A stretch of DNA of 64,000 nt from Gammaproteobacteria bacterium (GTDB lineage Bacteria > Pseudomonadota > Gammaproteobacteria > UBA12402), in the NCBI GenBank assembly GCA_050123335.1, contig JASFHH010000005.1, forward strand, positions 792 through 64,791, given 5' to 3'. Below the pieces are notes generated by a model. That model was not told where the DNA came from, searched no databases, and was given only the letters and a program-made list of their open reading frames with translations. This document shows, piece after piece, positions 4,668 through 6,011 of this stretch (within the stretch, counting starts at the first letter, position 1; each line of letters begins with the position of its first letter). A program made the position numbers and the translations under genes.

Positions 4668-6011
4668 ATGGGAGACACAACATCTAAGAAAAAGAACCAT
4701 ATAATATCTGAGGAAAATAACTATATAACGCCTAAGAAAAAGAAAAATATTTTACTTAAAGAAGGTAAGCTTAATACGCCTCTTAAGACGGTTTTGACTC
4801 CGAACTCAAAAGCTAAACTTGAAAAGCTAGGAGTAGAATATAATTCTGATAACAAAAATTTTTATTTTAATCCAAACACCGGAAGCCCGCATCCCAAAAA
4901 AAATAGTTCTTATAAATCTTCAGATTTTCGTCTTGAGATCAATGTTGTTAACCCTAAAACTAAAGAATCCAAAAAAAACAGAGTATTTAAACTTTTTGGA
5001 GAAAAAGATAAAATAACTTCCATCAACCTAGAGTATAAAAAACAAAAAAAATTAGCATATAGTATAACTGAAACAATCAAGCAAGAAGACTTGATAAAGT
5101 CCAAAAAAGTAAGACCGCGACACTTAAAAGGCAAAAATAAATCAGCTAAACAAATAGCAAAAGACCTGAAAATAAAAGACAAACTGCCATATGAAATTGA
5201 TGAAAACTCACTGGAATTATTGCATGCAATTGCAAAAATATTTAGCGGATGCAAAATTGTAACTCAAGATGTAAAAAATACTTTTACAGGAACACGACCT
5301 GCAAATATTAACCAACGAACAATAATAGAAACGCCGACTAAAGAATTTTTAGAAACAGCTAGTGCGAATTTTCTAAATAAAAATAAAAATACAACTAAAG
5401 CAGTGAAATATACGATAGAATTATACCAATGCGAGCCTAAAGTTAAGGGCATGAAAAACACCGAGCGTCCTCATCTTGGAGATTTGTTAAAAGTTTCTGC
5501 TGAATATCGATTAATAGAAGATCCAGATGTAATATTTAAGTATTCTGTAGAAATGCCTGTGTTCAAAACAATTTTGCAGCAAAATAATAAAGGGGAAGAT
5601 GATGGCGACAAATATTTCCGCAAAATATTTAACATTATGTATGAAAAACTACGTGAACATTATGGTAATAGCGTCTCGTCTACTTTGAATTTTAATAATG
5701 TTCCTATGCAAAGAAAGAGAAAAAAGAAAAAAAAGAAGAAAAAGAAGCTTAAGCTTAATGTAAATTTATTTGGAAATTCAAATAATACTCGTGTGCGAAG
5801 AAAGAAAAAGAAGAAAAAGAAGCGTTATAATGTGCGTTTATTTAAAGAATCAAATAATACTCATATGCGAAAAAATGAGCCTAAGAATTCTGTGCGGGAA
5901 AAGAAGCGTAAATCTAATGGGAATTTATCTCAAAGCCCTGTGCCGAAAAAGAAGCGTAAAATTAACATAAATTTATTTAAAGACTTATTTGCTAAAAGCC
6001 CCAGATTTTGA
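4668..6011 (+). CDS. Lys-rich protein with C-terminal tandem basic (NLS-like) repeats, hypothetical effector-like
   Basis: 447 aa. The C-terminal 110 aa contain three to four repeats of KKKKKK...N[LV]NLFG/KNSNNT. The region occupies the genomic position where ftsH normally follows rlmE. Confidence 0.55.
   Translation: MGDTTSKKKNHIISEENNYITPKKKKNILLKEGKLNTPLKTVLTPNSKAKLEKLGVEYNSDNKNFYFNPNTGSPHPKKNSSYKSSDFRLEINVVNPKTKESKKNRVFKLFGEKDKITSINLEYKKQKKLAYSITETIKQEDLIKSKKVRPRHLKGKNKSAKQIAKDLKIKDKLPYEIDENSLELLHAIAKIFSGCKIVTQDVKNTFTGTRPANINQRTIIETPTKEFLETASANFLNKNKNTTKAVKYTIELYQCEPKVKGMKNTERPHLGDLLKVSAEYRLIEDPDVIFKYSVEMPVFKTILQQNNKGEDDGDKYFRKIFNIMYEKLREHYGNSVSSTLNFNNVPMQRKRKKKKKKKKKLKLNVNLFGNSNNTRVRRKKKKKKKRYNVRLFKESNNTHMRKNEPKNSVREKKRKSNGNLSQSPVPKKKRKININLFKDLFAKSPRF
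5700..5900 (+). repeat. Imperfect ~90-bp tandem DNA repeats inside the 4668..6011 CDS, encoding poly-Lys/NLS-like motifs
   Basis: aagaaagagaaaaaagaaaaaaaagaag...aatgtaaatttatttggaaattcaaataatactcgtgtgcgaagaaag repeated as ...aatgtgcgtttatttaaagaatcaaataatactcatatgcga. Confidence 0.5.

Follow-up and report, generated by a model that had tools for sequence, protein, structure and literature searches.

Classical nuclear localization signals (NLSs), which depend on importin-alpha, are either monopartite, such as the PKKKRKV sequence of the simian virus 40 (SV40) large T-antigen, or bipartite, such as the nucleoplasmin-type consensus KR-X10-12-K(K/R)X(K/R). Bacterial nucleomodulins which carry an NLS include RomA/LegAS4 from Legionella, several Dot/Icm effectors from Coxiella burnetii, VirD2 from Agrobacterium, whose bipartite NLS is located at its C-terminus, and the transcription activator-like (TAL) effectors from Xanthomonas (reviewed in PMC7819608). 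The present study concerns a gene at positions 4668..6011 (+ strand) of a 64-kb stretch of DNA (64,000 nucleotides of contig JASFHH010000005.1, hereafter referred to as the window), which belongs to a metagenome-assembled genome (MAG) of a gammaproteobacterium from soil. The encoded protein, P0001, ends in a Lys-rich tail with four basic clusters, the last two of which form an arrangement resembling a bipartite NLS, and this arrangement is kept in the only homologue that could be detected. The reading favoured here, with an estimated probability of about 40%, is that P0001 is a translocated effector which would be imported into the nucleus or nucleolus of a protist host.

The open reading frame (ORF) of P0001 is uninterrupted and complete, comprises 447 codons plus a stop codon and represents a real gene. 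Its product is deposited at NCBI as MGD9107870.1 ("hypothetical protein PVI75_01705"; MAG Gammaproteobacteria bacterium). As a Logan assembly of SRR11697952 agrees fully with the window across positions 4110-6092 (100% identity), the repeats found in this gene are reproduced by a second assembler. The GC content of the gene is 30.2%, compared with a window mean of 33.4%. P0001 contains 19.7% Lys (24.6% Lys and Arg together) and has an isoelectric point (pI) of 10.2, with a value of 9.7 for residues 1-345 and of 12 for the remaining tail of approximately 100 residues. Neither a signal peptide nor a transmembrane segment was found in the protein (maximum 19-residue Kyte-Doolittle hydropathy: 1.09). 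An N-terminal extension (residues 1-36; 4668..4775, + strand), which is missing from the homologue, includes two additional basic clusters (KKK at residues 7-9 and PKKKK at residues 22-26) that are underlain by a 24-bp repeat (4679-4750). It is followed by a conserved core (residues 37-332; 4776..5663, + strand) without any known domain and, after this core, by the basic tail.

The last 100 residues of P0001 contain the four basic clusters RKRK9, RRK7R, KKRK and KKKRK, which correspond to the basic runs R349-K360 (RKRKKKKKKKKK), R377-R386, K412-K415 and K427-K431. Every one of them is followed by a motif of the type N-x-[NR]-L-[FS], namely LNVNLF at residue 363, YNVRLF at residue 387, SNGNLS at residue 416 and ININLF at residue 432. 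Tail unit 1 (residues 349-376; 5712..5795, + strand) reads RKRKKKKKKKKK, LKLNVNLF and GNSNNTRV, with LKLNVNLF being preceded in the tail by QRKRKKKKKKKKK, and tail unit 2 (residues 377-400; 5796..5867, + strand) reads RRKKKKKKKR, YNVRLF and KESNNTHM. After these two units the stretch RKNEPKNSVRE leads to an element which resembles a bipartite NLS (residues 412-431; 5901..5960, + strand) and in which KKRK, followed by SNGNLS and QSPV, is separated by the 11-residue spacer SNGNLSQSPVP from KKKRK. The last 16 residues of the protein (ININLFKDLFAKSPRF; 5961..6008, + strand) comprise ININLF and KDLFAKSPRF. With PKKKRK being located at residues 426-431, the heptapeptide PKKKRKI (residues 426-432) shares six of seven residues with the NLS of the SV40 T-antigen.

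On the DNA level, Tandem Repeats Finder identified a 72-bp period (5724-5875; 2.1 copies, 79% matches, score 186), in which tail units 1 and 2 are partners, while a direct-repeat tool identified a 48-bp pair (5890-5933 and 5938-5981, 77%), from the two copies of which the bipartite element is built. In addition, the 9-bp sub-repeat AAGAAAAAG was found in the DNA encoding the tail. The description of the locus in an initial annotation, made from the sequence without database searches, as encoding a Lys-rich protein with repeat-encoded PKKKRK-type clusters separated by N-x-x-L-F motifs is in agreement with these findings, as all peptides quoted there are present; the repeat length of approximately 90 bp given there has to be replaced by the periods of 72 bp and 48 bp. 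The copies of the repeats are old, with an ungapped nucleotide identity of 65-69%. The diverged units still have the basic run, N-[VI], L-F and S-N-N-T in common. Among shuffled versions of the tail, a K9 run occurred in 0.04%, PKKKRK in 0.27% and the NxxLF motif in 0.015%, and the motif pattern of the tail is not a by-product of its composition. NLSs were scored by rule-based motif scans, which returned four P-anchored patterns plus bipartite matches for P0001. Four-residue basic patterns according to PSORT-type NLS rules were found 22 times in P0001 and at most twice in any other of the 46 ORFs of at least 150 residues in the window. Judged by such motif rules, P0001 carries a putative NLS, as would be expected of a nucleomodulin.

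An exhaustive HMMER search with residues 1-347 of P0001, which covered about 15 billion proteins through 1.84 billion representatives, yielded exactly one homologue, P0002 (419 residues; E = 1e-42; 42% identity over residues 48-333). The alignment of both proteins spans T37 to Y332 of P0001 and includes about 100 invariant columns, with 39-42% identity over the core. A word-indexed search with full-length P0001 returned only P0001 itself, probably as its candidates were swamped by poly-K words. No additional member was retrieved from 5.8 billion clusters with a profile built from both cores, locus scans of metagenome and viral contigs with the core alignment gave no true match, and plasmid and phage collections searched by tblastn with the core were equally negative. 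Within the window, neither the core nor the tail has a paralogue. No strain variants of the locus were present in the collections searched, so that the variation in repeat number suggested in the initial annotation is so far hypothetical. The gene of P0002 is located on a 3.9-kb Logan contig (36% GC) between an rpoH-like sigma-factor gene on one side and genes for TonB and a TonB-dependent receptor (TBDR) on the other. Judged by these search results and by the locus of P0002, the family belongs to Gram-negative bacteria, is extremely rare and has no fixed link to rlmE, the upstream neighbour of the P0001 gene.

The 137-residue tail of P0002 is net acidic and rich in Asp, Asn and Phe (LNLDLNLDLDF, DDHFDFISE and TLNFFDDDLG). 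The sole basic runs of at least three residues in the whole protein are KRKR and KKRK, which are separated by TQDQLPNSPEC and located 10 residues past the core. The X11 spacing of this bipartite segment is identical in both proteins, and Leu, Ser and Pro within the spacer are shared. A strict [KR]4-X10-12-[KR]4 arrangement occurred in only one of 20,000 shuffles (0.005%) of the P0002 tail. Moreover, the best local alignment of the two tails coincides exactly with the bipartite segment, and the tails are otherwise unalignable. From this comparison we conclude that the bipartite basic element is probably an ancestral feature of the tail and that units 1 and 2 with their K9 and K7 runs would be a lineage-specific amplification which was placed between the core and this element. 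P0001 and P0002 together represent a new protein family with two members, which are plausible candidates for nuclear-targeted effectors. The acidic tail of P0002 is itself partly encoded by a tandem repeat, a 12-bp unit giving rise to (LNLD)n (L002 2314-2346). As (LNLD)n and LNVNLF/ININLF both alternate between hydrophobic and polar residues, the two tails may have a second short linear motif for some partner in common.

The core shared by both proteins did not match any family in Pfam, NCBIfam, PHROGs or PADLOC, even at lax thresholds (E <= 1-10), and the matches between the core profile and sequences in the PDB all had E > 0.3. AlphaFold2 models based on two-sequence alignments reached a mean predicted local distance difference test (pLDDT) score of 33.6 for the full-length protein and of 36.1 for the core only. 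A Foldseek search of the core model against the PDB gave no match at E <= 0.001, a result which was disregarded as meaningless. Internal repeats were not detected in the core of P0001. The 100-odd invariant core residues were also inspected by eye for catalytic motifs (the His/Asp/Cys order of the CE clan, the R-S-E motif of ADP-ribosyltransferases, DxD and the kinase HRD motif), none of which was convincing.

The resemblance of the tail to NLSs could be coincidental if the poly-K/N region is neutral low complexity, which arose by replication slippage in an orphan gene at a breakpoint. The low GC content of window (33%) and gene (30%), the composition of the runs from the microsatellite-like 9-nt unit, the otherwise unalignable tails of P0001 and P0002 and the fact that AlphaFold yields no structure all fit such an origin. 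However, despite their age the repeat copies have stayed in frame and still encode the basic run together with the NxxLF residues, the strict bipartite arrangement also occurs in the tail of P0002, which is not rich in Lys, and nothing comparable was found in any other ORF of this AT-rich window. The choice of Lys codons also speaks against neutral slippage. AAG is strongly over-used in the basic runs of P0001 (15 of 24 Lys codons, 62%), compared with 19% in the core (11 of 58) and 13% in 24 other genes of the window (109 of 822; Fisher p = 6e-8 versus the runs), and the longest A-run in the gene does not exceed 8 nt. In E. coli, iterated AAA codons lead to ribosome sliding and a lower output, whereas AAG codons do so much less (PMC4363877). 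The AAG bias of the tail fits with the poly-K tract being translated and being kept translatable. As the runs derive from the repeated AAGAAAAAG unit, their AAG codons are partly non-independent. Taken together, a neutral origin of the tail appears unlikely.

The genomic neighbourhood of the P0001 gene bears on a different explanation. The gene is preceded by yhbY (3435-3740, - strand) and by the FtsJ methyltransferase gene rlmE (3739..4359, + strand) and is followed by the convergent gene tpiA (6032..6784, - strand), the stop codon of which lies 20 nt past the stop codon of P0001. In 72 of 80 rlmE loci from GTDB species representatives of other proteobacteria, ftsH directly follows rlmE, with the remainder mostly being truncated contigs. 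Neither ftsH nor a remnant of it was found in 4300-6100 or elsewhere in the window, so that the gene indeed occupies the site at which, as had been pointed out in the initial annotation, ftsH would normally be expected. As the rlmE-ftsH order is broken and ftsH is absent from the window, the P0001 gene sits at a rearrangement breakpoint. No tRNA, integrase, insertion sequence (IS) element or flanking direct repeat which would mark an insertion was found at this locus. Horizontal acquisition, which had been proposed for the gene, may have taken place, but the breakpoint bears no marks of a mobile element and the GC content of the gene (30%) is only slightly lower than that of the window (33%). 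A tblastn search did not reveal a relative of P0001 encoded in any of the 80 other rlmE loci. The idea of P0001 being a component of a yhbY-rlmE-ftsH operon was rejected, as none of these loci encodes a relative and P0002 is sited elsewhere.

In bacteria, Lys-rich repeat tails are known from nucleoid proteins such as Hc1 and Hc2 of Chlamydia and HupB of mycobacteria. By analogy, P0001 might stay in the bacterial cytoplasm, where its polycationic tail would bind DNA, rRNA or polyphosphate, and might act as a nucleoid-associated, histone-like or ribosome-associated protein. The tail pI of 12, the adjoining ribosome-biogenesis genes yhbY and rlmE and the lack of evidence for secretion of P0001 are in line with this explanation. 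Yet the neighbourhood is not conserved, with the P0002 gene being located between the rpoH-like and the TonB/TBDR genes, and as the tail of P0002 is acidic overall, save two 4-residue basic clusters, a polycationic tail is not a property of the family. Furthermore, the 100 residues of the P0001 tail include 30 Lys, one Ala and four Pro, unlike the A/K/P-rich repeats of H1-like proteins, and a housekeeping nucleoid or ribosome factor would be expected to be represented by more than two sequences in about 15 billion. As an outcome speaking against an effector, the initial annotation had named homologues which share the basic tail and are ordinary proteins that bind ribosomes or nucleic acids. 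The searches did not return such homologues; the family consists of two members, has no known domain and does not conserve the polybasic tail. A cytoplasmic nucleic-acid binder is hence considered rather unlikely.

The residues that follow the basic clusters raise the question whether the tail addresses a membrane. In this case it would be a module of the type found in the MARCKS effector domain or in K-Ras, and its ligands would not be importins but acidic phospholipids, either in a membrane or vacuole of the host or in the inner membrane of the bacterium. Polybasic and phosphoinositide-binding regions do anchor bacterial effectors to host membranes (PMC5599653, PMC11556746), and the alternating hydrophobic and polar residues that end in L-F after the clusters of P0001 (LKLNVNLF, YNVRLF and ININLFKDLF) would suit such a role. 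The similar alternating motifs of P0002 (LNLDLNLDLDF and TLNFFDDD), however, occur in an acidic context, which would repel acidic lipids. No lipidation motif turned up in P0001, with a CaaX box and the context for N-terminal Gly-myristoylation not having been searched for. As the conserved feature is the 11-residue spacing in [KR]4-X11-[KR]4, which is meaningful for importin-alpha and has no known meaning for lipid binding, and not the charge, this explanation is weakened, and a membrane-targeting tail is regarded as distinctly improbable.

The charge of the extreme C-terminus allows yet another explanation. Substrates of type IV secretion systems (T4SSs) of the VirB/D4 type have positively charged C-termini which serve as transport signals. 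The C-terminus of P0001, with a net charge of +7 in its last 30 residues, could mainly represent such a translocation signal instead of targeting anything within the host. This feature is, however, not conserved, since the last 30 residues of P0002 have a net charge of -6, and the window shows no T4SS genes. That the tail is mainly a translocation signal therefore appears very improbable.

Under the favoured reading of P0001 as a nucleus-targeted effector, the protein would be a lineage-restricted accessory protein in which a globular core of approximately 290 residues precedes a C-terminal tail that evolves fast and is probably disordered. Ancestrally, this tail would have functioned through the classical bipartite basic motif [KR]4-X11-[KR]4-5, which old tandem duplications would have amplified into four basic clusters, each of them paired with N-x-[NR]-L-[FS]. 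A specialised secretion system would deliver P0001 to the eukaryotic (protist) host cell, where importin-alpha may read the basic clusters as monopartite or bipartite NLSs. The long poly-K runs might strengthen import and favour retention on nucleolar RNA or chromatin, and the activity of the core would thereby be brought into the nucleus. The combination of no export signal, no known domain, rarity and a shifting genomic location would be typical of effectors, as in Legionella-like bacteria. Of the earlier proposal that P0001 is a nucleomodulin, the NLS part has gained from P0002 keeping [KR]4-X11-[KR]4 after its core, while the secretion part is unsupported; as a whole, the proposal is neither proven nor refuted.

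Several points weigh against the effector reading. The conservation of the bipartite element rests on two sequences, and with the poly-K expansion excluded the alignment score was equalled in 5% of shuffles. Nucleic acids and acidic lipids are likewise bound by basic clusters which comply with NLS rules, such clusters are present in bacterial proteins that are not secreted, and slippage in AT-rich genomes produces low-complexity K/N tracts. The enrichment of AAG is partly non-independent, as mentioned above. The core has no match to a family or structure and no convincing catalytic motif which would point to an activity. The evidence for an association with a host is circumstantial and consists of one ankyrin protein, a low GC content and many orphan genes. 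No secretion-system genes were found within the 64-kb window, which covers only part of the genome. Finally, a bacterial-microcompartment (BMC) operon and genes of ordinary metabolism are also encoded in the window, as would suit a free-living organism or a facultative one, and the source material is bulk soil.

A more far-reaching version of the effector reading, which is quite doubtful as a whole, would assign P0001 and P0002 to a new family of effectors from Gammaproteobacteria associated with protists, with a novel core and an ancestral bipartite NLS being combined with swappable, fast-evolving "address/output" tails. The polybasic multi-NLS tail of P0001 would then drive nucleolar or chromatin retention, while the acidic tail of P0002, which is studded with Phe and Leu, resembles an acidic transactivation domain. 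A hairpin in the leader of the P0001 gene that masks the ribosome-binding site could in addition gate translation to an intracellular phase. If this version were true, it would represent a bacterial route, different from that of TAL effectors, by which an activity or a transcriptional activator is placed in the host nucleus.

The hairpin in question (4558..4661, + strand) is long and imperfect, ends 6 nt before the ATG start codon and pairs the only Shine-Dalgarno-like AGG. Its predicted stability is -42 kcal/mol (z = -5.7; none of 200 shuffles was equally stable), and the window contains no second copy of it. Its role may be that of a translational switch or control element, but it may also be a stray palindromic element. 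The leader of the P0002 gene has no equivalent hairpin. Both leaders have the octamer GGAATACT in common, which is compatible with chance, and are otherwise unalignable. A search of 4300-6100 against Rfam gave only a sub-threshold chance match to a snoRNA on the minus strand, and promoter and terminator scans at the P0001 locus revealed no enrichment over shuffles.

With regard to the organism, the YchF protein encoded in the window has metagenomic relatives at 82-96% identity, and its nearest named relatives belong to two "Thiotrichales bacterium" isolates (73%) and to Legionella species (70-73%). The sources include JGI 3300042731, a soil metagenome that ranks among the largest of its kind in IMG. 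The closest rlmE in GTDB genomes shares 69% identity, which suggests that the lineage has no close sequenced relative; a metagenome scan for rlmE, which was saturated by a conserved peptide, gave a best value of 65%. The window (33% GC) contains at least eight ORFs of at least 200 residues without a Pfam match. It also encodes the ankyrin protein that had been reported for this bacterium, a protein of 1361 residues (56218-60303, + strand) in which several ankyrin repeats lie close to the C-terminal third. The context described here would be compatible with an amoeba-associated soil bacterium. The exact 1361-residue ankyrin sequence is missing from the 15-billion-protein collection, perhaps as another start codon was called there, and its gene is directly preceded by a DDE transposase gene (55315-56151, + strand).

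Beyond tpiA, the P0001 locus continues with a His-phosphatase gene, hicAB and the BMC operon. The HicA/HicB toxin-antitoxin pair (7724-8511, + strand) is located between the tpiA/His-phosphatase genes and kdsB. The BMC operon (9365-16000, - strand) encodes a class II aldolase, a DeoC-type aldolase, BMC/EutN shell proteins, an RnfC/Nuo51-like flavoprotein and an aldehyde dehydrogenase and would be unusual company for a putative intracellular lineage. Upstream of P0001, the longest ORF of rlmE, which begins with a TTG at 3670, extends into the oppositely oriented yhbY (window 3670-3740); the alignments of the FtsJ domain and of the homologues begin at ATG 3739, which makes this codon the likelier start. 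Further observations concern other parts of the window. An orphan ORF of 411 residues at 200-1435 (+ strand; approximately 26% GC, 14.6% Lys, no Pfam match, singleton cluster MGD9107865.1) could be an accessory or effector gene. Phage- or defence-like genes are present at 18987-26309, including a helix-turn-helix protein with an M78 peptidase (ImmA/IrrE-like), Bro-N, Abi_C and DUF4238 among ORFs without a family, and at 28242-29978 (- strand) a 577-residue fusion of a radical-SAM domain with a C-terminal NUDIX domain is encoded.

P0001, an in silico candidate encoded in a soil MAG, has a single known relative and no cultured host system, and as NLS-bearing candidate effectors are routinely predicted in Legionella-like bacteria, it has to be considered a lead and not a discovery. 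If it were translocated and imported, a structurally new core domain would join the nucleomodulin repertoire, and an uncultured, deep-branching lineage of Gammaproteobacteria would provide an example of a nuclear-targeting module that evolved as an ancestral bipartite NLS was amplified in tandem.

Among the systems with which P0001 can be compared, Lys-rich nucleoid proteins (Chlamydia Hc1/Hc2, Coxiella Hq1, the tail of mycobacterial HupB and Pseudomonas AlgP) are likewise very basic, built from repeats and probably disordered, and like them the tail of P0001 could condense nucleic acids. Their tails are, however, A/K/P-rich, H1-like and conserved within their families, whereas the tail of P0001 is K/N/R-rich, is attached to a non-basic core of 290 residues and is replaced by an acidic tail in P0002. 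An assignment to the histone-H1-like proteins of the Hc1/Hc2 type was rejected, as the composition is not of the AKKA/PAKK type, the basic region is not conserved and there is no Pfam or NCBIfam match. With the MARCKS effector domain, the K-Ras C-terminus and the polybasic regions of effectors, P0001 shares basic clusters that are interspersed with Leu and Phe, but the element conserved in P0001 and P0002 is the 11-residue spacing of the clusters and not the overall charge. The bipartite NLS consensus is fitted by KKRK-X11-KKKRK of P0001 and KRKR-X11-KKRK of P0002, a likeness on the level of motif resemblance only; the four to six clusters of P0001, which include K9 and K7 homopolymers, go far beyond what an NLS needs. 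P0001 is not a TAL effector, as it has no array of 33-35-residue DNA-binding repeats, yet the order of core, NLS-like element and acidic/hydrophobic tail in P0002 recalls the combination of an NLS with an acidic activation domain in these proteins. From the nucleomodulins in general, P0001, which is known here from its sequence alone, differs in both sequence and domains, having no SET, ankyrin, relaxase or TAL-repeat domain. Like them, it has no signal peptide and carries its eukaryote-type basic motif at the C-terminus, outside of the core, and the genome which encodes it also encodes a large ankyrin-repeat protein.

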